Positions 3,723-55,460 of a DNA stretch of 64,000 nt are shown piece after piece. Numbering within the stretch: the stretch's first letter is position 1; each line of letters starts with the position of its first letter. Location: assembly GCA_963819735.1 (NCBI GenBank), contig CAWFXC010000001.1, forward strand, positions 1,865,415 through 1,929,414. Reading direction: 5' to 3'. This stretch comes from an uncultured Actinomycetes bacterium. GTDB lineage: Bacteria > Actinomycetota > Acidimicrobiia > IMCC26256 > DASPTH01. Both the position numbers and the translations under genes were made by a program. The notes beneath the pieces are model-generated. The model searched no databases, had not been told where the DNA came from, and worked only from the letters and a program-made list of their open reading frames with translations.

Positions 3723-5288
3723 TCAGCCGGGCGCGCAGTGGGTGCCGGGCGCGGGCGGTGTCCCGTCGACCAGGTAGGCGTCGACGGTGTCGTCGATGCA
3801 CGTGCTGCGCCCACTGCCGTACGCGGTGTGCTCGGTGCTGTCGTACGTGAGCAGATCGGATCCCGCGATGCGGCCGGCCATCGCCTGCGCGCCCGTGTAC
3901 GGAGTGGCGGGATCGCCGGTGGTGCCGATGACGACGATCGGGCCGGTACTGGTCACCCGCACGTCGCCGAGCTTGTCGCCGCGCGCGGGCTTGGGCATGC
4001 CGACGCACGGGATGGTGCCCCACGACCCTCCCCAGGGCGGCAGCTGCGACTGGAAGCTCTGGACCTGCGCCAGTTCCTGGGCGTCGGTGAGCCGGGTCGT
4101 GGCCGGCCGGTCGACGCAGCTGATCACGGCGTTCGCCTCCAGGAAGGGGGTCCAGGTGCCGTCGGTCTGGCGCCCGAGGTACTGATCGGCGATGGCGAGC
4201 AACCGACCGCCCTGACCGTCCTGCACCGCGGGGCCGAGCGCGTCGGCGAGCGCCGGCCATCCGCGCGCTTCGTCGTAGAGCATCGCCAGCACCCCGGCTT
4301 CGAGCAGCGACGGCGTGAGCACGCCTTGGCGCGTGGTGCCGTCGACCGTGTACGACGCCGGCAGCGGCTGCTGCGCGACGCGCGCGATCAGCTGGTTGAA
4401 CACGGCGGCGGGAGGGCCGGACTCGCTCAGTGAACACCGCGTCTGCTCGCACCAGGAGAGGAACGAATCGAGCGCGTGCATGAAGCCCTGCGCCTGGGCG
4501 AAGTCGTAGTCGTAGGTGGACAGTGAGAGGTCGAGAGGACCGTCGAGCACCATGCTGCGGACGTTCCCCGGGAACATCTGCGCGTACGCGGCCCCGAGCA
4601 CGGTGCCGTACGAGTAGCCGACGTACGTGAGCTTGGGCTCGCGCAGCGCGAGCCTGATCGCCTCCAGGTCACGCGCGCCGTTGCGCGTCCCCACCTGGCC
4701 CGCGTACGCGCCCATCCGGGTTTTGCACGCCGCCGCGAAGCCCGCGTTGTACCGGTGGACCACGTCGAGCGCGGCGGCGGAGTCGGCCACCGCGGGGAGG
4801 CCGTTGCCGAGATCGAGATACGAGTCGTCGACGCAGTCGATCGGACGGGAGGCGCCGGTGCCCCGCGGATCGAAGCTGACGACGTCGAACCGGGACCGGA
4901 TCACCTCGGGCAGACGGTCGTAGGTCTGACGCAGGTAGTCGACGCCTCCGACGCCGGGTCCGCCGAAGTTCACGACCAACGCACCGATTCGCGTCGTGGG
5001 CTCGAGGGCCGGATGCCGGATGAGGGCGAGCGGCAACGTCTCGCCCTGGGGTGTCCGCCACTCGACTGGGACCGCCAGCGTGGTGCACTCGAAGCCGTTG
5101 CCGCAGTCGGCCCACGAGACCGCGGTGTCGATCGCGGGGAGCGGCGGCCACGTCGTGGTCGTGGTGGTCTCGGGCGCGGTCGTCGTCGGCTTGCGGGTCT
5201 TGGCCAACGCCGGGGTCGCGAGCGCGGCGGTCACCACCAACGCGAGCAGGAGCCCGCCGACCAAGGCGAGCCGCCGCGGTCTCCGCAT
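3723..5288 (-). CDS. Secreted alpha/beta hydrolase, tripeptidyl-aminopeptidase (S33, TAP-like) family
   Basis: Start chosen at the internal ATG, giving the signal peptide MRRPRRLALVGGLLLALVVTAALATPALA. Has the nucleophile elbow GYSYGT and a TAP-like C-terminus (IGTTGDPATPY). The ATG shares one base with the glpD stop (TGATG). Confidence 0.8.
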   Translation of the reverse strand: MRRPRRLALVGGLLLALVVTAALATPALAKTRKPTTTAPETTTTTTWPPLPAIDTAVSWADCGNGFECTTLAVPVEWRTPQGETLPLALIRHPALEPTTRIGALVVNFGGPGVGGVDYLRQTYDRLPEVIRSRFDVVSFDPRGTGASRPIDCVDDSYLDLGNGLPAVADSAAALDVVHRYNAGFAAACKTRMGAYAGQVGTRNGARDLEAIRLALREPKLTYVGYSYGTVLGAAYAQMFPGNVRSMVLDGPLDLSLSTYDYDFAQAQGFMHALDSFLSWCEQTRCSLSESGPPAAVFNQLIARVAQQPLPASYTVDGTTRQGVLTPSLLEAGVLAMLYDEARGWPALADALGPAVQDGQGGRLLAIADQYLGRQTDGTWTPFLEANAVISCVDRPATTRLTDAQELAQVQSFQSQLPPWGGSWGTIPCVGMPKPARGDKLGDVRVTSTGPIVVIGTTGDPATPYTGAQAMAGRIAGSDLLTYDSTEHTAYGSGRSTCIDDTVDAYLVDGTPPAPGTHCAPG

Positions 5289-17875: not shown

Positions 17876-18247
17876 ATGGCCGGTGCGCCTACCCTGCGGG
17901 ACGTGCCGGATTTCGCCGACGACCAGAGCAGCGAGCTCGAGCGCAAGGCGAAGGCGCTCAAGTTCATCGCGCTGTTCGAGACGGTCACCTACCTCCTCCT
18001 CGCGTACTTCTGGCTGATCGCGCAGAACGACGCCATGAAGGCGGTCGTCGGTTTCTTCCACGGCCTGGTGTGGATGACGTTCGTGGCCATGACTGTGATC
18101 ATCCGCCCCGACATCGGGTGGTCGTGGGGCTATACCGCGCTGGTGATCCTCACCGGGCCGATCGGCGGCGTGATGGTGTGGTGGCGACTCAGGACGACGC
18201 CGCGAGCAGCGCTCGTACCTCGGCAATCGCCTGCGGCAGATCGCTGA
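17876..18247 (+). CDS. DUF3817 (YdzA-like) integral membrane protein
   Basis: Start at the internal ATG. Has 3-4 TM helices with ALKFIALFETVTYLLL and GLVWMTFV, typical of DUF3817. Confidence 0.65.
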   Translation: MAGAPTLRDVPDFADDQSSELERKAKALKFIALFETVTYLLLAYFWLIAQNDAMKAVVGFFHGLVWMTFVAMTVIIRPDIGWSWGYTALVILTGPIGGVMVWWRLRTTPRAALVPRQSPAADR

Positions 18248-21200
18248 CCGCGCGCTCTTCCGCGCTGCCTTCGCCGGCCGTGCCGGACCCTGCGCCGGCC
18301 GTGCCGGACCCTGCGCCGGCCGTGCCGGACCCTGCGACTCCGAGAAACAGGAAGACGCACGACGCGACGGGTTCGCCGGTGGCGAGCTCGAGCGCGAGCG
18401 CGTACGACGCGCCCTGCAACCGGTAGCGGGCAACCTTCTCGTCGAGGTCGTGCTCGTCGCGCCACGCGTCGGTCTTGTAGTCGACGACGACCAAGCCGTC
18501 GGGGCCACGGAACACGAGATCCACGTAGCCCTCGAGCGTCGAGCCTCCCACCGGCGCGGCCACATACATCTCGCGGCGGAAACCGGCCGCGACCGCGGCG
18601 CGCACCGTGCGGGTGGTGAGCGCGGCGCGGGCCCTCGCCGCGATGTCGTGCTCCTTTCCGATGATCCCCTCGGCCGCGGCCTGCGCGGCCGCGGTGGCGT
18701 CGATGTCGTCACCGGTCGTGAGGTCGACGGTTTGCAACACCGCGTGCACTGCCCGACCGATCGCGGTGCCGTACCGGCCCTTGTTCCAGGGCGGCAGTTC
18801 GAGGTCGCGCGCGTCCTTGGCCAGGCCGGGATCGCGGCCCGCGGCTTCCACGGCCGCCGCGGCTTGTGCGCGTTCGGCCGCGGCCCGTTCGGCCGCCTCG
18901 CGGGCGATCGCAGTGGCGGCGCGGATGCGGGGCCGGGCGCCGTCGGCCAACGCCGAGTCGAGCGCGGTTCGCCATTCGGCCCACGGGAGGAGCGGCGGAG
19001 CCGGTTCGCCACCGGCGGGTGGCGGGAGCGGCGCCACCTGGCTCGGGTCGAGCGCGACCCAACCAGTCTGCCGCTCGGGCACGGAGCCGGCTTGCCGTTC
19101 GGGCCCGGATTCGGCGGCGTGCCAGATCAGCTGGGCGTGGGTCCAGCCCGTCTGGTCTTCGGCGTTGGGGGGCTTCGCCGGCCGGTGCACCGAGACCACG
19201 AGGTGATCGCGGGCGCGGGTCATGGCCACGTAGAGCAGACGCAGCTTCTCGTGGAAGTCCATCTGCTCGTCGATGGGCTGGTAGCGCTCGAACTCCTCGG
19301 TGGTCACCCGCGCCGACACCCGGAGCGCGTAGGTGTCGGAGTCGTGCGGGAACCGCAGCTGCACGCCCGCGGTGCGCCGTAGGGCCTTCGTGGTCATGCC
19401 CGACACGATCGTGATCGGGAACTCGAGCCCCTTGGCGCCGTGAATGGTGAGGATGCGCACCGCGTCGTCGTCGGTCTCGGGCAGCACCGTCTCCACCACC
19501 CGCGCGCCTTCGCTTCCTTGCAGGTCGGCCCACTGCAGGAAGTCGCGCAGGCTCCCGCCCTCGGCTTCGGTGAACGCGCGGGCCTGCTCGACGACGAACC
19601 GGACGCGGCGCCAGAGATCGCGGGGGCGTCCGTGGGCGAAGCCGACCTCGAGCACGCGCCGCTCCCGCACGATGCGGTCGAGCAGCTCGCTCGGTGAGAG
19701 CCACATCCGCGCGTCGTGCCACGCCGCGAGCGTGCGCATCGCCTCACCGACGGCGTGATCGTCGGGCAGGCTCGCGGGGAGGTCGGCCCGGTGGTCCCAC
19801 CGCCCGTGGTGCGCGACCTTGAACGTGTAGAGGTCGTCGTCGCCACAGCCGAACACGGGGGAGCGGAGCGCGCTGACCAGCGCGAGCTCGTCGGTCGGGT
19901 CGTCGACGGCCTGGAGCACGACGAGCAGGTCGCGGATTTCCCGGGTGCCGTAGACGAGCGACGACGTCTCGGCGCGGTAGGGGATGCCGGCCCCGTCGAG
20001 CGCATCCTCGAGTTGCCCGAGCGACGTGCGCGCGGGGATCAGGATGCAGATGTCGCCGAGGCGACACGGTGCCCAGCTGTCGTTGCCGCCGGCGTCGCGC
20101 GCGCCGACCATCCATTCGTCGGCCAGGGCGGTGCGGATGGTCGCGGCGACGTCGAGGGCTTCGAGCCGGCGCAGCTCGTCGGCGTTGCCGGCGTCGGGAT
20201 CGGGTTCGACGCCCAGCAGCACCACCGGGGGGCCGCCCGGTGCCGCATCGCGCACGGGTTCGAGCGCGACGTATTCGGGCTGCGACTCCGGTTCGGCGAC
20301 GATGAGCTCGCGGAACACGTGGTTGACGAACTCGATCACCGGACGCGCCGACCGGAAGTTGCGGGTGAGGTGGCGCGGCGCGGCGCCGAAGGCGGAGCGT
20401 GCGCGCAGGAAGGCCGCGATGTCGGCCCGGCGGAACCGGTAGATCGACTGCTTCGGGTCGCCCACGACGAAGAGGCGGCCGGGGTCGGCGGTGAGCTCGT
20501 CCCACCGGCGCTCACGCGCGTCGGGATCCCCCGACGCGAGGAGCGCGGCGAGATCGCTCTGGATCGGATCGGTGTCCTGGAACTCGTCGAGGAGCAGCCG
20601 GGTGTAGCGCGCCCGCAGGCGTTGCCGGACGTCCCAGCCGTGGTCCGGATCGCGCAGGACCGCCCGGGCGAGCACGAGGAGGTCGTGGAACTCGAGCTGC
20701 CCGCTGCGGCGGCGGGCGTCGGCTTCGCGCAGGGTGAACTGCGCGATCTCCCAGGCCAACCGCCTGACCACCAGCTCGGTGAACTGCTTCGTGATCGCGT
20801 CGACGTGCTTGCGCGCCGCCGCCACCGCCCCGCGCACCGCCGCGACGTCGGGCCAGTTCCCCTTCTGGCCCGCGTTTCCCCTGACCTTGGGCATTCCGGC
20901 AGTGAGCAGTCGCACCTGCTCGTACTCGTCGGGCGCGCTGGACACCTCGCGTCGCCAGTCGGCGATGGCGACGAGGCCGGCGAGGAGCTTGTCGGCCTCG
21001 TCGGTGCATTCCGCAGCGCGCGCAGTGAGCTCGTCGACCGCGGCGAACACTCCGTCGACCGGGAGGGGCGGGGGGTCGGGCTCCTCGTGCATGCGTTCGG
21101 CGACGAGGTCCCAGTTCGCGTTGCACGCGAGCGCCAGCGTGCGCAGCGTGTCGCGGCTCATGTCGGCGTTGAGCGCGAGCAGGAGCGGTCGTTCGAGGGC

Positions 21201-21701
21201 CGGGTCGTCGAGCGCGTGGTCGAGGAAGCGCGTCCAGCGGTCTTCGAACGCGAGCTGCGACCCGATGTCGTCGAGCACTTCGATCCGCGGTGGAAGGCCG
21301 GCCTCGATGGGGTGCTCGCCGAGCAGGCGCTGCGCGAACGCGTGCAACGTCGACACTGCCGCGGCATCGAGCTCGTCGAGCGCGACCGCGGCGCGGGCCG
21401 CGGCCATGTCGGCGCCCGTGCCCGCGCTCACGCGCGCGGCGACGTCCTCCAGGCGACGGCGAATGCGGTCGCGGAGCTCCGCCGCCGCTTTGTCGGTGAA
21501 CGTCACCGCGACGATCTCGCGCATCGGGATGTCGCCCACGGTCACGAGCGCGACGATCCGGCTCACCAGTGCTTCGGTCTTGCCCGATCCCGCGCCCGCC
21601 TCGACGAACAGCGTGGCGTCGAGCTCGTGCGCGATGGCCTCGCGGGTCGCGAGATCCTCGTCGAGGTCGAGGAAGCTCTGCTGGAACACTTCAGGCGCCA
21701 T
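18189..21701 (-). CDS. adnB: UvrD-like helicase with a C-terminal RecB-type nuclease (AdnB-like subunit)
   Basis: Start at the ATG giving MAPEVFQQSFLDL. Has Walker A (EAGAGSGKTEALV), DEFQDT, UvrD motifs, and the C-terminal PD-(D/E)XK motif GYVDLVF...VVVDYKTD. It is paired with the upstream nuclease-helicase gene, overlapping it by 11 nt. Confidence 0.8.
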   Translation of the reverse strand: MAPEVFQQSFLDLDEDLATREAIAHELDATLFVEAGAGSGKTEALVSRIVALVTVGDIPMREIVAVTFTDKAAAELRDRIRRRLEDVAARVSAGTGADMAAARAAVALDELDAAAVSTLHAFAQRLLGEHPIEAGLPPRIEVLDDIGSQLAFEDRWTRFLDHALDDPALERPLLLALNADMSRDTLRTLALACNANWDLVAERMHEEPDPPPLPVDGVFAAVDELTARAAECTDEADKLLAGLVAIADWRREVSSAPDEYEQVRLLTAGMPKVRGNAGQKGNWPDVAAVRGAVAAARKHVDAITKQFTELVVRRLAWEIAQFTLREADARRRSGQLEFHDLLVLARAVLRDPDHGWDVRQRLRARYTRLLLDEFQDTDPIQSDLAALLASGDPDARERRWDELTADPGRLFVVGDPKQSIYRFRRADIAAFLRARSAFGAAPRHLTRNFRSARPVIEFVNHVFRELIVAEPESQPEYVALEPVRDAAPGGPPVVLLGVEPDPDAGNADELRRLEALDVAATIRTALADEWMVGARDAGGNDSWAPCRLGDICILIPARTSLGQLEDALDGAGIPYRAETSSLVYGTREIRDLLVVLQAVDDPTDELALVSALRSPVFGCGDDDLYTFKVAHHGRWDHRADLPASLPDDHAVGEAMRTLAAWHDARMWLSPSELLDRIVRERRVLEVGFAHGRPRDLWRRVRFVVEQARAFTEAEGGSLRDFLQWADLQGSEGARVVETVLPETDDDAVRILTIHGAKGLEFPITIVSGMTTKALRRTAGVQLRFPHDSDTYALRVSARVTTEEFERYQPIDEQMDFHEKLRLLYVAMTRARDHLVVSVHRPAKPPNAEDQTGWTHAQLIWHAAESGPERQAGSVPERQTGWVALDPSQVAPLPPPAGGEPAPPLLPWAEWRTALDSALADGARPRIRAATAIAREAAERAAAERAQAAAAVEAAGRDPGLAKDARDLELPPWNKGRYGTAIGRAVHAVLQTVDLTTGDDIDATAAAQAAAEGIIGKEHDIAARARAALTTRTVRAAVAAGFRREMYVAAPVGGSTLEGYVDLVFRGPDGLVVVDYKTDAWRDEHDLDEKVARYRLQGASYALALELATGEPVASCVFLFLGVAGSGTAGAGSGTAGAGSGTAGEGSAEERAVSDLPQAIAEVRALLAASS
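18273..18335 (-). repeat. Perfect 21-bp x3 tandem repeat inside the adnB 3' region (encodes GSGTAGA x3)
   Basis: GCCGGCCGTGCCGGACCCTGC is repeated three times without mismatch. The period is divisible by 3 and in frame. Confidence 0.95.
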
Positions 21702-24700
21702 CGTCGACCTCGTCGCCCGTGACCTCGTCGCCCGTGACCGACTCGCCCGGCTCCGCCAGCTCGACGTAGCCGCGGAGCGTGGGCGCGCCGCGTTTGCGGG
21801 TCCACTCCCGGTAGCGGTCGCGGGTGCCGCGCGGATCGGGATCGGCGTAGGTGCGGGCGCGCCACTGCCACGTTGACGGCGCATCGACGCGGCACGGGAA
21901 CACGCCAGCCTCGATGCCGTCGACGATCGTGCGGAGGACGGTGTCGAGCCGGGCGTCGACCGACGGCGTGAGGGCGAGGTCGGACCACCGGAACCCGCCC
22001 TTGGTGCTGATGAACCAGTACGCGGCGCCGACGGGAGTGTCGGCGTCGCCGAACGACGCGCGCGCCGCGTGCGCGTAGACCGGGAGCTGGAGCAGGGTGC
22101 CGCCCGCGGTGGGGTCGTCGGCGCCCGGACCCCGCGCCCTCCCCGTCTTGTAGTCGATCACCCAGAGCACACCGGTGTCGGTGCGGTCGACACGGTCGGC
22201 GGCGCCGCGGAAACGCAGCGTTCGGCCGTCGGAGAGCGCGAGCTTCACCGCGGGAGCCGTGGCGTCGGGCAGCCCGAAGCGAAGCTCCGTAGCGATGGTG
22301 CGGATGCCGTTCTCCGCTCGCACCGCGAAGTCCTCGAGGAGGAACCGGTCGAGGTCGGCGAGGATGCGCCGCTGGTCGCGGTGCCAGAACAGCCGACGCC
22401 CGGTGAGCCCCTCCGCTTCGTACTGCGCGCAGTGCGCCTGGGCGATCTCCACCAACCGATCGCGTTCGGCCGCGCTCCATTCGGCGTCGGGGTCGGGCAC
22501 GCCGCCGGGCCGCTCGAGCATGGCGCGGAGGAATTCGTCGAGGATCTCGTGCACCAGCGAGCCGCGGTCGAGCGGTGACAGCTCGTATCGCTCTTCGGGC
22601 AGCTCGGGGATGTCGACCCGCAGTACCTGCTCCATGAAGTACGCGAACGGGCACGCGGCCCACGTCTGGAGCCGCGTCGGTGAGACCACGACGTCGCCTT
22701 CGGTGGGCGCGGCGATGCCGACGCCCGCGAGGTTGCCGTCGAACCGCGTGAATTCGTAGCCCGCGCGCGCGACCGTGCACTCGAGGCCGCGGCGCAACGC
22801 GGCATCCGGTTCCGGGAGATCGTGCGCGGCGGCGTTGCCGCCGGCACGCGTGTGGTCGAGCAGTGCCCGCAGCCGGTACTCCTGTTCGGTGGCCGGGAAG
22901 CGCACGCGGGCGATCCCGGCCGCGAACGACGGGACCGGTGCGAACCAGTCGGCGTGGAGGCCGGCCAGGTCGTCGGCGTAGCGCCGTTCGCCGCCCAGCG
23001 CGGCCACGGTGTCGAGCACGAAGCGCGACGGCATCCGCTCCGTGGTGCGGCGGAGGTCGCCGCGTGGGTACAGCAGCACCCGCTCCCCAGTCGCGGCGGC
23101 CAACGCGGCGAGGAATCGGCGATGGTCGTCGTCGACGCGCGCGCGTCGTAACGGGAGCACGCCCTCGGTGAGCCCGCGGTCGGCGTCGGGGAGCAGGGAA
23201 TCGTCGCGGACGCGGGTGGGGAACGTGCCTTCGGCGAGGCCGCACACGAACACCCGGTCGAGGTCGAGGCCGAGGCCCAACGACACGTGCCCCATGAGGA
23301 TTCCGTCGCCCAGCCGCCCGACTCGCCCGAGGTCGGCGTCGAGCTCGAGCTCGAGCGTGCGCCGGAACACGTCGATGCCCGGGGTGGACTCCACCGCGTC
23401 GAGCCCGGCGAGGCGCTCGAGCGCGGCGTCGACCTTGTCGGCCGCGTGCTGCTCCTGCTCGGGCCAGCGGGCGCGACGCGAGTCGTCGCCCAAGTGGTCG
23501 CGCACGAGTTGCTGGGCCCAACCCGCGAGCTCGCGCCAACCCCACGACTCCTCGGTGCGCATGGCGGCGACGATCCCGGTGATGAACTCCGCGAGGGCGC
23601 GGGTGGCCGCCAGCTCCCGCTCGTAGCGCTCCGGGCGCGGGTCGCGATCGGGGACCGCGAGCTCCTCGGCGAGCGAGCGGGCCACGATGCGGGCGTGGCG
23701 GTCGAGCCGCTCCTGCCACTGCGCCGGACCCCGGACCACCCCGGCGTTGCGGCTGATCTGGTCCCAGAAGGCTGCGGGCGCCGGCCGATCGTGCCAGTGC
23801 ACCGGCGCCGAGGCGAGGAGGGCCATGACGTCGTGCCGGTGGAACTGACGGTCGGGGAGCGCGAGCAGGCCGAGCAGCGAACGCCCGAGCACGCTCTCGG
23901 CGAGGGTGCGGACCGCGGCGCCGTTGTGCGGGATCCCGGCCGCGCCGAGTTGCTCGTGCACGAGACGCGCGTAGGGCTCGGCCGCGCCGTAGAGGATCGC
24001 CATCCGCTCGAGCGCGACGCCGTCGCGCAGCGCGTCGACCACGAGACGTACGACGGCCCGGACCTCGTCGTCGGGATCCGAGGCCGACACGACGCGCGTC
24101 CCGCGCGGGACGACCGCGTCTTCGACCACCGCGTCGTCGAACCCGAGGCGCGCCAGCGACGTCGCGACGGCGGCATCGGCGCGCGCGATGCCCGTCGTCC
24201 CGGCGATCACCGTGACCTCGGCGCGACGCGCCAGCGCATCGAGCACCGCGGCGGCGGGGATCGGAACCTCCTGAGGGAGGTAGACGACGACCGCGCCGAT
24301 GTCGGCGAGCAGCGGTGTTCCGGCGTCGATCACGCCGACGGCGGCGTCCATGAGATCGCGCTCGTCGTACCAGGCGGGTTCGAGCTCGGCGCGCGCGGCA
24401 CGACAGATGCGGACGACGTCGGCGGCGCGCCGGCCGGCACGCGCGAGCTGATCGAGCGCGCCGGTCGAACACGTCGACAACTCGCGGTAGGCGTCGACCA
24501 GCGCTTCCTCGGTGGCGGGGTGCTGCGCGACCGCGGCGAAGACTCCCGGCGCGCCGGCCAGCACGCCCCGGATCGCCGCCGCCAACACGGGATTCGACAC
24601 CGGGCGGCGACGGGCCGACGCCAGACGGGGCGCGCCGAGCAGTTCGGCGAGGCGATAGGTGGTGAGGAACGTGACCGCGGCGATGCCGTCGCCGGCGGGC

Positions 24701-24879
24701 GTGAGCCGGCCCAGGGTGCCGGCGGCCAGCAGCCGGCGCTCCGCGACCCCGACGTAGTTGGTGGGCACCACGACCGTGACCGGGGCCAACGGGTCACCCG
24801 CCTTGCCCGCCGCGATCGCGTCACGCAGTGCCTGCGCGGCGGCGCGGCCGTATGCGGCGCGGACGAGCGAGCAAGCCAT
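21691..24879 (-). CDS. adnA: AdnA/AddB-like helicase-nuclease subunit (degenerate motor domain plus PD-(D/E)XK nuclease)
   Basis: About 1060 aa from the internal ATG (MACSLVRAAYG). No canonical GKT Walker A is seen near the N-terminus. The C-terminus has SPTRLQTWAACPFAYF, VIDYKTG and LQLPVY nuclease motifs. It lies immediately upstream of the adnB-like gene. Confidence 0.7.
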   Translation of the reverse strand: MACSLVRAAYGRAAAQALRDAIAAGKAGDPLAPVTVVVPTNYVGVAERRLLAAGTLGRLTPAGDGIAAVTFLTTYRLAELLGAPRLASARRRPVSNPVLAAAIRGVLAGAPGVFAAVAQHPATEEALVDAYRELSTCSTGALDQLARAGRRAADVVRICRAARAELEPAWYDERDLMDAAVGVIDAGTPLLADIGAVVVYLPQEVPIPAAAVLDALARRAEVTVIAGTTGIARADAAVATSLARLGFDDAVVEDAVVPRGTRVVSASDPDDEVRAVVRLVVDALRDGVALERMAILYGAAEPYARLVHEQLGAAGIPHNGAAVRTLAESVLGRSLLGLLALPDRQFHRHDVMALLASAPVHWHDRPAPAAFWDQISRNAGVVRGPAQWQERLDRHARIVARSLAEELAVPDRDPRPERYERELAATRALAEFITGIVAAMRTEESWGWRELAGWAQQLVRDHLGDDSRRARWPEQEQHAADKVDAALERLAGLDAVESTPGIDVFRRTLELELDADLGRVGRLGDGILMGHVSLGLGLDLDRVFVCGLAEGTFPTRVRDDSLLPDADRGLTEGVLPLRRARVDDDHRRFLAALAAATGERVLLYPRGDLRRTTERMPSRFVLDTVAALGGERRYADDLAGLHADWFAPVPSFAAGIARVRFPATEQEYRLRALLDHTRAGGNAAAHDLPEPDAALRRGLECTVARAGYEFTRFDGNLAGVGIAAPTEGDVVVSPTRLQTWAACPFAYFMEQVLRVDIPELPEERYELSPLDRGSLVHEILDEFLRAMLERPGGVPDPDAEWSAAERDRLVEIAQAHCAQYEAEGLTGRRLFWHRDQRRILADLDRFLLEDFAVRAENGIRTIATELRFGLPDATAPAVKLALSDGRTLRFRGAADRVDRTDTGVLWVIDYKTGRARGPGADDPTAGGTLLQLPVYAHAARASFGDADTPVGAAYWFISTKGGFRWSDLALTPSVDARLDTVLRTIVDGIEAGVFPCRVDAPSTWQWRARTYADPDPRGTRDRYREWTRKRGAPTLRGYVELAEPGESVTGDEVTGDEVDDGA

Positions 24880-25013
24880 GGGTGGGATCGTACGGCGGGG
24901 GTGTGACGCCGTCGTCCGGGCCTGATCGGAGCAGATGGGAGGCGTCATCGGGGCCGTAATCGGGGACGTCACGGGATGGTGGATCCGAGAGGGGGACAGG
25001 TAGCTTCGGCCGG

Positions 25014-26015
25014 GTGAGCGGGGTCGTGGCAGAGGGCTTGGTCAAGCGGTTCGGCGAGTTCACTGCGCTCGACGGGGTCGACTTCAGCGTGGCCGAAGGC
25101 GGGCTCGCCGGGCTGCTCGGTCCGAACGGCGCGGGCAAGACGACCACCATCCGGATCCTCACCACGCTGCTCGATTTCGACGCCGGCCACGCGACCGTGG
25201 GTGGCTACGACGTGATGCGCGAGGCGCAACTCGTCCGCAGCATCATCGGCCTGACCGGCCAGTACGCGGCGGTCGACGACTACCTGACCGGTCGCGAGAA
25301 CCTCGTGCTGGTCGGCCGCCTCGGCCGCATGCGCAAGGCCCACGCGAAGGAGCGGGCCGCGCACCTGCTCACGCTCTTCGAGCTCGACTACGCAGCCGAC
25401 CGCGCGTTGCGCACGTACTCCGGGGGGATGCGCCGCCGCCTCGACCTCGCGGCGAGCCTCATGGTGGCCCCGAGCGTGCTGTTCCTCGACGAGCCCACCA
25501 CGGGCCTCGATCCGCGCAGCCGGTTGAGCCTGTGGGACGTCATCGCCGAGCTCAAGGTGGAGGGCACGACGATCGTCCTCACCACGCAGTACCTCGAGGA
25601 GGCCGACCACCTGGCCGAACGCATCAGCGTGATCGACGCCGGCCGGGTGATCGCCGAAGGCACGGCCGACGAGTTGAAGACGCTCGTCGGGGGCGACGTG
25701 CTGCACGTGGTGGTGGAAGACCGCGGCCGCCTCGCCGACGCGGTGGTGAGCATGGGCCGTGCCTTCGCGCTCGGGGAGCACGAGCTCACGTTCGATCCCG
25801 AACTGGGCACGGTCGTGATACCGGTCACGACCGGCGCCGCCGCACTCACCCACGCGTTGCGCAACCTCGATGCCGACGACATCGCGATCTCCGATCTCAG
25901 CCTCCGTCGCCCCTCGCTCGACGACGTGTTCCTCAGCCTCACCGGGCGCGCCAACGCCGAGGACCGTCCCGAGCAGGCGCTCCCCCGTCCGCTCAACCAA
26001 GGTCGCCGTGACTGA
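25014..26015 (+). CDS. ABC transporter ATP-binding protein (DrrA/ABC-2 exporter type)
   Basis: Has Walker A (GLLGPNGAGKTTT), the signature YSGGMRRRLDLA and Walker B (VLFLDEPTTGLD). Confidence 0.9.
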   Translation: MSGVVAEGLVKRFGEFTALDGVDFSVAEGGLAGLLGPNGAGKTTTIRILTTLLDFDAGHATVGGYDVMREAQLVRSIIGLTGQYAAVDDYLTGRENLVLVGRLGRMRKAHAKERAAHLLTLFELDYAADRALRTYSGGMRRRLDLAASLMVAPSVLFLDEPTTGLDPRSRLSLWDVIAELKVEGTTIVLTTQYLEEADHLAERISVIDAGRVIAEGTADELKTLVGGDVLHVVVEDRGRLADAVVSMGRAFALGEHELTFDPELGTVVIPVTTGAAALTHALRNLDADDIAISDLSLRRPSLDDVFLSLTGRANAEDRPEQALPRPLNQGRRD

Positions 26016-36236: not shown

Positions 36237-37640
<1,404 letters not shown>

Positions 37641-53717: not shown

Positions 53718-54167
53718 ATGGACATCGGTGACAAGGTCGACGACTTCGTACTGCCCGACGAAACCGGGACCCCGCGCAAGCTCAGCGAGCTGCTCGCCAA
53801 CGGGCCGGTCGTGCTGTTCTTCTACCCGGCGGCGATGACAACGGGGTGCACGAAGGAGAGCTGCCACTTCCGCGATCTCGCCTCCGAGTTCGCCGCGGTG
53901 GGCGCGCAGCGGGTCGGCATCAGCCGCGACTCGGTCGACAAGCAGCACCAATTCTCCGAGAAGCACAGCTTCGACTACCCGCTGCTCTCCGACTCCGAGG
54001 GCGTGGTGGCCGCGCAGTTCGGCGTCGCCCGCAAGCACGGCCCGCCCAAGCGGGTCACGTTCGTGATCGATCGCGACAGCCGGGTCGTCGAGGTGGTCAA
54101 GAGCGAGATCCGGATGGGTGTGCACGCCGATCGCGCGCTCGACGCGCTGAAGAAGCTGCCCCACTGA
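53718..54167 (+). CDS. bcp: Thiol peroxidase, Bcp-type peroxiredoxin
   Basis: 149 aa. Has VVLFFYPAAMTTGCTKESCHFRD (the Cp/Cr CxxxxC pattern) and FSEKHSFDYPLLSD. Confidence 0.85.
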   Translation: MDIGDKVDDFVLPDETGTPRKLSELLANGPVVLFFYPAAMTTGCTKESCHFRDLASEFAAVGAQRVGISRDSVDKQHQFSEKHSFDYPLLSDSEGVVAAQFGVARKHGPPKRVTFVIDRDSRVVEVVKSEIRMGVHADRALDALKKLPH

Positions 54168-54191: not shown

Positions 54192-54731
54192 TCAGGCCGG
54201 CGCGCCGCCCGGCAGTGCCGCAAGCAATTCGGCGACCGGCGCGTGGTCCGACGAATCACTCGCGTAGCTCTCGTAAGGCACGACCGGTCCGGGGCCGATC
54301 ACGAACGTGGCGCCGAGTTGGGTGACGCGCTTCCCCGACTTGTGGATGCGGTACCCCTCTTTCCACACGCGGCGGGTACCCGCCCATGACGACGGGCCCG
54401 CGACGGTCAACCAGTTCGCCTTGCGGACGGCAGCCGCGTTCGCGGCCTCGGCATCGTCGTCGACGAGCACCAGGAACGGGATGTCCTCGTCGGCCACGAA
54501 CGCCGATGCGTAGCGGGCGTCACCGGTGCCGATGGCGATCACGTCGGCACCCAGTGCGGTGATCTCGGGATACGAGCGGCGCAACTGCGCCGCGTGCGCT
54601 CGGCAGTGCAGTCAACCGAAATGGCGGAGGAAGACAACGATCACGGGGCGCTCCGCCCAGATGTCGCCGAGCCGATGCGTTCGCTCGTCGGTGCCGGTGA
54701 GCTCGACCGCTTCCAACGCTTCGATGTCCAT
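54192..54731 (-). CDS. Peroxiredoxin-like (AhpC/TSA, Prx_like2-type) protein with an in-frame TGA at the first redox-motif position: candidate selenoprotein (U-x-x-C), or alternatively a nonsense pseudogene
   Basis: ATG at 54731, then 39 sense codons (MDIEALEAVELTGTDERTHRLGDIWAERPVIVVFLRHFG). TGA lies at 54612-54614, and the same frame continues LHCRAHAAQLRRSYPEITALGADVIAIG... for 139 more codons. The family normally has FG-C-x-x-C-R here. A hairpin lies 18 nt downstream. Confidence 0.6.
54576..54593 (-). promoter_or_regulatory. Candidate bacterial SECIS hairpin (GCGGCGC-AGUU-GCGCCGC)
   Basis: 7-bp perfect GC stem with the apical loop AGUU (G at loop position 2, then U). The stem starts 18 nt after the UGA, and the loop lies about 25 nt from the UGA. 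An outer CGAGCG/CGCUCG pairing is also possible. Confidence 0.45.
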
Positions 54732-54781: not shown

Positions 54782-55051
54782 ATGGGAGACTTGTACGCGG
54801 GCCGTATCTCGTTCGACAGCTCGGACGAAACCGTCTACATGCAGATCTCGATCGACGATCTCGATTCGGCCGCCTGGATCGGAGTCGAACCCAGCGGCCA
54901 CACCGTCCCCGGGATCACCGAGAAGGGCAACTACGTCGTGAAGTTGCTCGAGGACGCCCATCCGCGACGCGGGCAGACGGCCCGGGCCGAGATCCAGAAC
55001 GAGGTCGAGGACGGCGTGTTGCGCCTCGTCGGCCAGACCGCCTTCAGCTGA
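54782..55051 (+). CDS. Hypothetical small protein
   Basis: 89-aa ORF with an ATG start, no clear RBS and no motif. Confidence 0.3.
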   Translation: MGDLYAGRISFDSSDETVYMQISIDDLDSAAWIGVEPSGHTVPGITEKGNYVVKLLEDAHPRRGQTARAEIQNEVEDGVLRLVGQTAFS

Positions 55052-55080: not shown

Positions 55081-55359
55081 TCAGGCGTCGGCGTCGTCGG
55101 CGGGCTCGATGACGTCGATGTCCTCCTCGACGGGGACCAACTCGCCGTCGTCGTCGGCTACCGCGATCACCTCGTCGACCACGATGGTTCCGTCGGGGGC
55201 CTCGACCGCGATCGTCTCCTCGGTGGCGAGCACGTTGCCGTCGGAATCGACGAGTGCCTTCAGGTCGTCGACCACGACGGTGCCGTCGTCGCCGACCGCA
55301 GTGGTGACCACTTCGACTTCGGAGATGTCGTCGTCGGACGCGTTGGTGTCGCTGCTCAT
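55081..55359 (-). CDS. Small highly acidic protein with internal D-G-T/E-V-V repeats (hypothetical)
   Basis: 92 aa from an ATG preceded by GAGGAG. Has repeated blocks (GDDGTVVVDD, SDGNVLATEE, PDGTIVVDEV, DDGELVPVEE) and more than 30% Asp plus Glu. Confidence 0.45.
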   Translation of the reverse strand: MSSDTNASDDDISEVEVVTTAVGDDGTVVVDDLKALVDSDGNVLATEETIAVEAPDGTIVVDEVIAVADDDGELVPVEEDIDVIEPADDADA

Positions 55360-55460
55360 CGCGGGCTCCTCGTTGGGTGAGGGGAGATGATCGCACACTG
55401 AGCGGCGCGCGTTGACACGCGGCACCCGCGCGGTGCCGGCGAGTTGCGTAGTGTCGGTCC

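Follow-up and report, generated by a model that had tools for sequence, protein, structure and literature searches.

A conserved in-frame UGA codon and its downstream hairpin point to a UxxC selenoprotein of the Prx-like2 family in soil-type Acidimicrobiia

Thioredoxin (Trx)-fold proteins that carry selenocysteine (Sec, U) in a UxxC motif, and whose genes contain in-frame hairpins, make up the commonest class of predicted bacterial selenoproteins (PMC2398784, Table 2). In metagenomes from the Sargasso Sea and the Global Ocean Sampling (GOS) they have been catalogued as the Prx-like 1, 2 and 3, Trx-like and DsbA-like families (PMC1088965, PMC2398784). A gene of the same design is described here from the minus strand of a 64-kb stretch of a metagenome-assembled genome (MAG) of the class Acidimicrobiia (contig CAWFXC010000001.1, positions 1,865,415 to 1,929,414; the whole stretch of 64,000 nucleotides is referred to as the window). 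The MetY protein encoded in the window shares 87–91% identity with proteins that are labelled ‘Acidimicrobiia bacterium’ or ‘Actinomycetota bacterium’. As in the catalogued families, Sec would replace the first Cys of a CxxC motif, a small hairpin with a G in its loop lies within the coding sequence just downstream of the UGA codon, and Cys-containing homologues are abundant. On comparative evidence, the UGA at codon 40 of the window gene is read as sense and the hairpin behind it is selected, and the residue inserted is predicted to be Sec. The gene is almost certainly a genuine case of recoding, and residue 40 is very probably Sec inserted by the standard SelB route.

The marine families fall into pfam00578, pfam08534 and pfam04592, whereas the clade to which the window gene belongs scores best on PF13911 and comes from soil-type Acidimicrobiia and Actinomycetota. 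This clade was not found by name in the marine catalogues, from which it is set apart by the published descriptions and not by direct comparison of the sequences. A catalogued peroxiredoxin-like (AhpC/TSA) selenoprotein of cd02970, the family label that the initial annotation had given to the window gene, likewise has Sec first in its redox motif. However, that protein is of the UxxS type and comes from a deltaproteobacterial symbiont, whereas the window clade is of the UxxC type, has an invariant second Cys and belongs to the Actinomycetota.

Among eukaryotic proteins the nearest counterparts are the SelU proteins, which carry a Prx-like2 domain (PMC3473315); PRXL2A, PRXL2C and PRXL2B are SELENOU1, SELENOU2 and SELENOU3 respectively (PMC13134290). 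SelU is homologous over the full length and occurs in Sec and Cys forms with repeated Sec-to-Cys conversions, a pattern that is suggested here too. Identity to the window protein is only about 20%, however, and decoding of SelU relies on a selenocysteine insertion sequence (SECIS) in the 3′ untranslated region together with EFSec and SBP2, in place of the in-frame hairpin and the predicted SelB of the window gene. In alignment the catalytic pair C44/C47 of PRXL2B corresponds to U40/C43, a comparison made with PRXL2B and not with the Sec position of SelU itself. At the RNA level the reference system is the fdhF-type SECIS of Escherichia coli with its SelB factor, which is likewise an in-frame hairpin directly behind the UGA, and whose small apical loop carries G-U and is held to a constrained spacing. 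The window hairpin differs from it in having no sequence similarity, a short stem (a 5-bp core with up to two basal pairs) and no conserved bulged U, and the role of SelB at the window gene is a predicted one.

The best NCBIfam match of the window protein is NF040769, SelL-related redox protein, which covers 166 of the 179 residues (E = 1e-29) with a score of 103.4 bits, below the curated cutoff of 120; by that threshold it is a relative of the family and not a member. SelL likewise combines a Prx-like Trx fold with a redox motif of the CxxC type. SelL proper carries a UxxU diselenide motif, as against the single Sec predicted in the window protein.

When Cys was put at position 40, the window protein matched PF13911 (AhpC-TSA_2) at 56.2 bits against a cutoff of 27 (E = 5e-15), and it also matched AhpC-TSA and Redoxin (PF00578 at 51.8 against a threshold of 26). 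The family profile matched human prostamide/prostaglandin F synthase PRXL2B (9us9) over residues 2–173 (E = 5e-8); matches to ResA and Bcp-type profiles were limited to the Trx core. The redox motif, R-H-F-G-[U/C]-x-x-C-R, takes the form U-L/I/V-x-C in Sec forms and lies at the N-terminus of helix α1. Comparison with solved structures aligned residue 40 with the first (N-terminal) Cys of the ResA CxxC motif, which bears out the initial placement of a U-x-x-C at the redox-Cys position. An AlphaFold2 model of P0010, the closest full-length Cys homologue, which is 63% identical to the window protein (pLDDT 84.6, pTM 0.81), has residue 40 directly before helix 41–51, and the best match of this model in the Protein Data Bank is again PRXL2B (9usa, TM 0.80/0.85). 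The predicted product is therefore a CxxC-type (here UxxC) thiol/selenol oxidoreductase of the Prx-like2/PRXL2 (SelU-type) family. Assignment as a canonical peroxiredoxin of the AhpC, Bcp or PrxQ kind was considered and rejected: there is no T/S-x-x-C, the sequence running P29-VIVVFLRHFG-U40 with His at −3, and the Bcp and PrxQ equivalog models score far below their cutoffs.

Conservation of the UGA codon and of its reading frame

Relatives were gathered in part by a metagenome scan seeded with TGA forms, which yielded 80 loci, and codon 40 was scored in 104 homologous loci, the window included. The codon is TGA in 85 of the 104 loci and TGC or TGT in the remaining 19. The initial annotation had proposed that homologues be inspected for Cys or Sec at this position and close relatives for TGA with the hairpin, and both comparisons came out in its favour: only these two states occur, and every one of the 85 TGA loci has the hairpin at the same offset. 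These 85 loci, the window included, come from many samples and represent 78 distinct sequences over the 78-nt region that was analysed. The 84 TGA relatives are independent sequences, from metagenomes and two GTDB MAGs, that have diverged to 53–94% protein identity. The two MAGs are species representatives, one from the Acidimicrobiia (L014) and one from the Actinomycetota (L016), and they carry the TGA in a more divergent context, HFG*LLCREHASQLRG. No further stop codons or frameshifts were found in the TGA relatives, and independent assemblies by the dozen, produced by different projects on different sequencing platforms, share the TGA.

Protein databases present the clade in another guise. 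In a search with Cys at position 40, the nearest proteins (70–94% identity) are all short calls of 125–133 residues; full-length Cys forms appear only at 63% identity or less, and Cys40 is present in all full-length database homologues. The DNA behind four of the short calls was retrieved, and each has a 39-residue ‘gene’ that ends about 27 nt before the short call, a pattern of the kind that a conserved in-frame stop gives rise to. Translation across the junction in these four loci gives 39 codons, TGA and then LHCRAHAAQLRR.

In the window, an ATG at 54731 opens a minus-strand frame that meets TGA at 54612–54614 and continues to 54192, 180 codons in all, exactly as first described. The 39 sense codons before the UGA read MDIEALEAVELTGTDERTHRLGDIWAERPVIVVFLRHFG, ending in ...FLRHFG, and beyond the UGA the frame goes on as LHCRAHAAQLRR... 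up to the terminal TGA. The list of open reading frames (ORFs) holds only 54192..54584, 130 residues from a TTG start, as had also been remarked. The proportion of G and C at third codon positions (GC3) is 0.84 in codons 1–39 and 0.86 downstream of the UGA, against 0.54 in the same phase of the non-coding DNA just upstream of the ATG. Among the relatives, an ATG, GTG or TTG lies exactly 39 codons before the TGA in 78 of 81 testable cases, and the frame after the UGA is open for 133–145 codons in every complete locus. The ratio of non-synonymous to synonymous substitution (dN/dS; Nei–Gojobori, approximately 3000 sequence pairs) is 0.29 for codons 2–39 and 0.30 for codons 41–95. Moreover, codons 41–49 (LHCRAHAAQ) are conserved as protein, with C43 and R44 invariant. 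Both halves of the gene are thus under equal purifying selection, in keeping with the early impression that both are intact. Taken together, the GC3 values, the start codon, the open frame and the dN/dS ratios therefore exclude a pseudogene and a sequencing error.

A genome-wide reassignment of TGA was also considered but does not hold, since the terminal stop is TGA in 54 of 80 of these genes, the window gene among them. No bSECIS-like hairpin was found after the terminal UGA of the window gene.

One Cys-form homologue stands apart. At locus L015 (3001–3520; OY970186.1, a long-read, complete-chromosome MAG) the gene is out of frame past about residue 97, where the protein turns into Arg/Ala/Pro-rich nonsense while the DNA is still family-like; this locus is either a recent pseudogene or the product of a long-read indel error.

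The hairpin behind the UGA codon

The consensus model of the bacterial SECIS (bSECIS) has a loop of 3–9 nt, an upper stem of 4–16 bp, a G in the first two loop positions that is usually followed by G or U, a distance of 16–37 nt from the UGA to the apical loop and a minimum free energy (MFE) of −7.5 kcal/mol or lower (PMC13188914, Fig. 2). The window hairpin has a loop of 4 nt and a stem of 7 bp, with at least 5 bp in 77 of 78 relatives, and within the loop the G is at position 2 and is followed by U. A gap of 18 nt separates the UGA from the stem and one of 25 nt separates it from the apical loop, the latter being identical in all TGA forms. The GC stem at 54576–54593 and its spacing had been recognised initially, and the distance of about 25 nt indeed lies within the range of the model. 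The MFE of the window hairpin is −14.2 kcal/mol, and 69 of 78 relatives pass the energy threshold on the bare 18-nt hairpin.

The behaviour of the hairpin across relatives was analysed in an ungapped alignment of the 78 distinct TGA forms (alignment A2). The sequence CGC-AGUU-GCG is invariant at a fixed offset from the UGA in all 85 TGA loci, and the loop A-G-U-U is invariant in 78 of 78 aligned sequences. Base pairing is possible in 90.3% of the cells of the 7-bp helix and in 389 of 390 cells of its core. At 0.299, the covariation score exceeds the 0.131 ± 0.011 of shuffled alignments, and none of 500 shuffles reached the observed value. Three pairs of the helix have changes on both sides. 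Pair 36:49 is CG in 49 sequences, GC in 27 and UG in two; pair 37:48 occurs as five pair types (GC 44, GU 25, UG 5, UA 2, AU 1); and at pair 35:50 there are eight changes from C-G to U-A. When the 3′ partner was slid by one to three columns in either direction, pairing fell to only 17–62%. RNAalifold, unaided, found the same 5-bp core.

The 19 Cys forms provide the contrast. The 5-bp core is intact in 77 of 78 TGA forms and in 2 of 19 Cys forms (Fisher p = 8e-16). The Leu codon of the loop is UUG in 78 of 78 TGA forms, as against 4 of 19 Cys forms (Fisher p = 3e-14), and UUG accounts for only 8% of Leu codons in the genes of the window. Likewise, the third base of the preceding codon is G in all 78 TGA forms and in 8 of 19 Cys forms. 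Synonymous sites are thus invariant only where a UGA lies upstream, which therefore argues for selection at the RNA level, and on this comparison the hairpin is taken to be a selected RNA element that is tied to the UGA state.

A second small helix, CGGY...GCCG, was returned by RNAalifold (window 54601–54618 on the minus strand; A2 columns 9–12 with 23–26). The UGA lies in the loop of this helix, which can form in most sequences. Coding constraint is the probable source of the helix, as the same bases, belonging to the Phe-Gly and Cys-Arg codons, are present in Cys forms.

Decoding of the UGA, rival explanations and evolution

A number of observations weigh against selenocysteine decoding and have to be set beside the evidence above. 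In a window of 70.6% GC, the hairpin is not exceptional by itself: the 76-nt segment folds no better than dinucleotide shuffles (z = −0.30), and among the 1269 UGAs on both strands of the window, hairpins that pass the published bSECIS rules stand behind 17.7% when the stem has at least 5 bp and behind 9.6% when it has at least 7 bp. For the 10-nt core CGCAGTTGCG there is one occurrence in the window, with 0.32 expected. The two basal pairs of the stem are unpaired in 27% and 40% of relatives, and 9 of 78 relatives miss the −7.5 kcal/mol threshold, at −6.8 to −7.4, when the 18-nt hairpin is taken alone. The covariance-model check that had been suggested at the outset gave no Rfam SECIS match in the window, even at E values up to 10. 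Searches for selA, selB, selD and tRNA-Sec came back empty for the 64-kb window and for the roughly 100 related loci (tblastn with E. coli SelA, SelB and SelD against the window and the loci; tRNA scans of the window and 60 loci). Finally, neither the window nor the flanks of the loci yielded a second TGA-interrupted gene under a GC3-based filter.

Some of these points carry little information. The hairpin alone is no more than would be expected by chance, and its significance comes from the comparison with relatives. The Rfam result is expected, as Rfam represents bacterial SECIS elements poorly. The missing linkage to Sec machinery is uninformative, since linkage of that machinery to a selenoprotein gene is not expected. 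All 84 complete genomes of Actinomarina, which belongs to another order of the class Acidimicrobiia, are reported to encode selA, selB, selC and selD (preprint 10.64898/2026.04.03.716425), and Sec machinery is reported in mycobacteria (PMC13449736).

Several candidates from these scans were discarded. An 88-nt ‘tRNA-???’ with anticodon ‘tc’ that ARAGORN called at 5083–5170 on the minus strand of locus L005, about 1.6 kb from a Cys-form homologue, is a false positive with no Rfam tRNA or tRNA-Sec match. The sole other hit of the GC3 filter in the window, at 19695 on the plus strand, is antisense to a helicase-like ORF of 1231 residues, and the 23 hits in the locus flanks are ordinary gene ends at which the next gene lies in the same frame.

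Sequence comparisons are silent on the residue that is inserted, and this, together with the lack of Sec machinery in the window and related loci, leaves room for recoding to something other than Sec. The hairpin would then favour the incorporation of Cys, or of some other residue, by way of a non-canonical tRNA and elongation factor or by stimulated near-cognate read-through, in genomes without Sec biosynthesis. Such a reading is improbable. The hairpin fits a SelB-type bSECIS in loop size, G-U content and spacing; the position is the classic site of Sec/Cys exchange in the redox motif of the Trx fold; and Acidimicrobiia, like other Actinomycetota, are documented to have Sec machinery. For Cys, moreover, there is no evident reason to keep a costly UGA and hairpin when TGC is one mutation away and has been taken by several sublineages. 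A shade less probable again is natural non-Sec recoding across a large clade, in which these soil Acidimicrobiia would have neither selA nor selD. A SelB-like factor, working on the UGA and hairpin with the help of an unusual tRNA, or else stimulated near-cognate reading, would then insert Cys or another residue without canonical Sec biosynthesis. Gene callers, for their part, annotate two products, namely a 39-residue peptide ending at the UGA and a 130-residue protein that starts at the TTG at 54584, and this is the arrangement in the public annotation. It is very improbable as biology: the 130-residue fragment would be without strand β1 and the whole Trx-fold redox motif, its ‘start’ TTG is the Leu codon within the hairpin loop, the 27 nt between the two calls (codons 41–49) are conserved as protein with their invariant C43 and R44, and both the fixed N-terminal length of 39 codons and the shared frame would go unexplained.

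A pseudogene would require no more than one base change, a TGC-to-TGA nonsense mutation in a Cys-type Prx-like2 gene, with the hairpin as a GC-rich coincidence. The initial annotation had named this alternative itself, and the bSECIS-like hairpins behind 10–18% of arbitrary window UGAs, as well as the fold z-score, speak for it. It is nevertheless refuted by the 84 other independent sequences that have the same TGA at 53–94% protein identity with no further stops or frameshifts, by near-equal dN/dS on either side of the UGA and by a hairpin that covaries and is confined to TGA forms; nor are the TGA loci copies of one sequence, being 78 distinct forms from many samples. The chance that it is right is accordingly very slim. 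Least credible of all is a sequencing or assembly error for a true TGC. The source is a MAG, and the related long-read locus L015 has an apparent frameshift; however, the TGA recurs across the dozens of independently made assemblies mentioned above, which excludes the prospect, raised initially, that re-sequencing would return TGC.

The observations that favour Sec are thus a conserved UGA, flanks that are both selected as protein, a hairpin that is conserved, covaries, is tied to TGA and conforms to the bSECIS model, a Trx fold with residue 40 at the first position of the redox motif, and the use of TGA as an ordinary stop elsewhere in these organisms. In the scheme proposed for Sec decoding, a single intact gene would specify Sec by UGA at residue 40, which takes the N-terminal, nucleophilic place in the C-x-x-C motif. 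SelB is predicted to bind the hairpin, with its invariant CGC-AGUU-GCG top, its G and then U in the loop and its distance of 25 nt from the UGA. Once the UGA reaches the ribosomal A site, the tethered complex would supply Sec there and compete with release factor 2, and the ribosome would then read on to the real stop at 54192–54194. By analogy, the mature enzyme may cycle between a selenolate/thiol form and a U40–C43 selenenylsulfide; it would reduce a disulfide, a peroxide or another oxidised substrate of similar kind, and a cellular thiol system would restore its reduced state.

In a rough neighbour-joining tree, built without support values, the Sec forms are paraphyletic and three groups of Cys forms branch from within them. 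The topology suggests, as a hypothesis, that Sec may be the ancestral state and that several Sec-to-Cys conversions took place, followed by decay of the hairpin. A Sec-to-Cys dynamic of this kind is described for bacteria in general (PMC1794560) as well as for eukaryotic SelU. The Cys forms, nested in Sec forms and with the hairpin lost, would offer a clean natural series in which Sec-to-Cys conversion and the decay of the SECIS could be followed.

Public annotation of this genome, like that of dozens of relatives by JGI and ENA, divides the gene into pieces of 39 and about 130 residues, so that no database copy retains the active site. Systematic re-annotation could be based on the fixed signature RHFG-UGA-18 nt-NNNNCGCAGUUGCGNNNN. 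The bacterial selenoproteome would gain a large clade of PRXL2/SelU homologues from soil-associated, high-GC, probably aerobic Acidimicrobiia, and many such organisms would be implied to keep the Sec machinery. An incomplete search of the literature found no report of this UxxC clade from Acidimicrobiia and soil. The understanding of Sec decoding is unchanged, since both the mechanism and the class of protein are textbook; the main value lies in the correction of the annotation and in a widespread selenoprotein in soil Actinomycetota.

Gene layout and neighbourhood

The coordinates of the gene, its elements and its convergent neighbour are collected in Table 1.

Table 1. Features of the predicted selenoprotein gene and of the adjoining peroxiredoxin gene, in window coordinates
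Feature	Position	Strand	Remarks
Complete CDS of the predicted selenoprotein	54192..54731	minus	179 residues (M1...U40...A179) and stop; Prx-like2/AhpC-TSA_2 Trx-fold protein
ATG start codon	54729-54731	minus	39 codons before the predicted Sec codon
In-frame UGA, putative Sec codon U40	54612-54614	minus	First position of the U-L-H-C redox motif
TGC codon, Cys43, putative resolving Cys of the UxxC motif	54603..54605	minus	C43 invariant in protein alignments
Spacer from UGA to hairpin	54594..54611	minus	18 nt, encodes L-H-C-R-A-H; length identical in all TGA forms
Bacterial SECIS-like hairpin GCGGCGC-AGUU-GCGCCGC	54576-54593	minus	5′ arm 54587-54593, loop 54583-54586, 3′ arm 54576-54582
True terminal stop, also UGA	54192-54194	minus	Without a SECIS-like hairpin behind it
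Convergent Bcp-type peroxiredoxin	~53718-54167	plus	Pfam AhpC-TSA, 5e-34

The convergent Bcp peroxiredoxin reported initially is indeed present, and its stop codon lies 24 nt from that of the selenoprotein gene. The gene neighbours comprise an RDD protein, an Rce1-like protease, a glyoxalase, Bcp, a dienelactone hydrolase and an SDR protein. The window neighbours are not kept beside the gene in relatives, as judged from four fetched loci, and therefore give no operon clue. The convergent arrangement with Bcp is common to the window and the 94%-identical relative L020 and is absent in more distant relatives.

In many relatives, with Sec and with Cys forms, a HAD-hydrolase-like gene that starts M[VI]KAV[IL]FDFYNTL abuts the stop codon of the homologue on the same strand; it lies directly 3′ of the homologue in L001, L003, L010, L058, L061, L081 and L092. 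This suggests that the homologue and the HAD-like gene form a conserved gene pair, which the window lacks, with the convergent Bcp gene in its place. Two small ORFs without a Pfam match adjoin the window gene, one of 89 residues at 54782–55051 on the plus strand and one of 114 residues, very acidic, at 55081–55425 on the minus strand. A scan for promoter and terminator consensus sequences found nothing, and such a scan is uninformative at 70% GC.

Elsewhere in the window, two adjacent large minus-strand ORFs, at 18189–21884 (1231 residues) and 21691–25041 (about 1100 residues), have the look of a helicase-nuclease pair of the AddA/AddB or UvrD type, and the 1231-residue ORF ends in a short tandem peptide repeat, GSGTAGA, present three times. 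A trinucleotide repeat seen in the translations at about 37565–37600 gives nine Thr codons in a row, or nine Val codons in an overlapping ORF on the opposite strand. The Thr-codon tract lies a short way upstream of MetY, which starts at 37538, and has a Ser/Thr-kinase-like gene on its other side.

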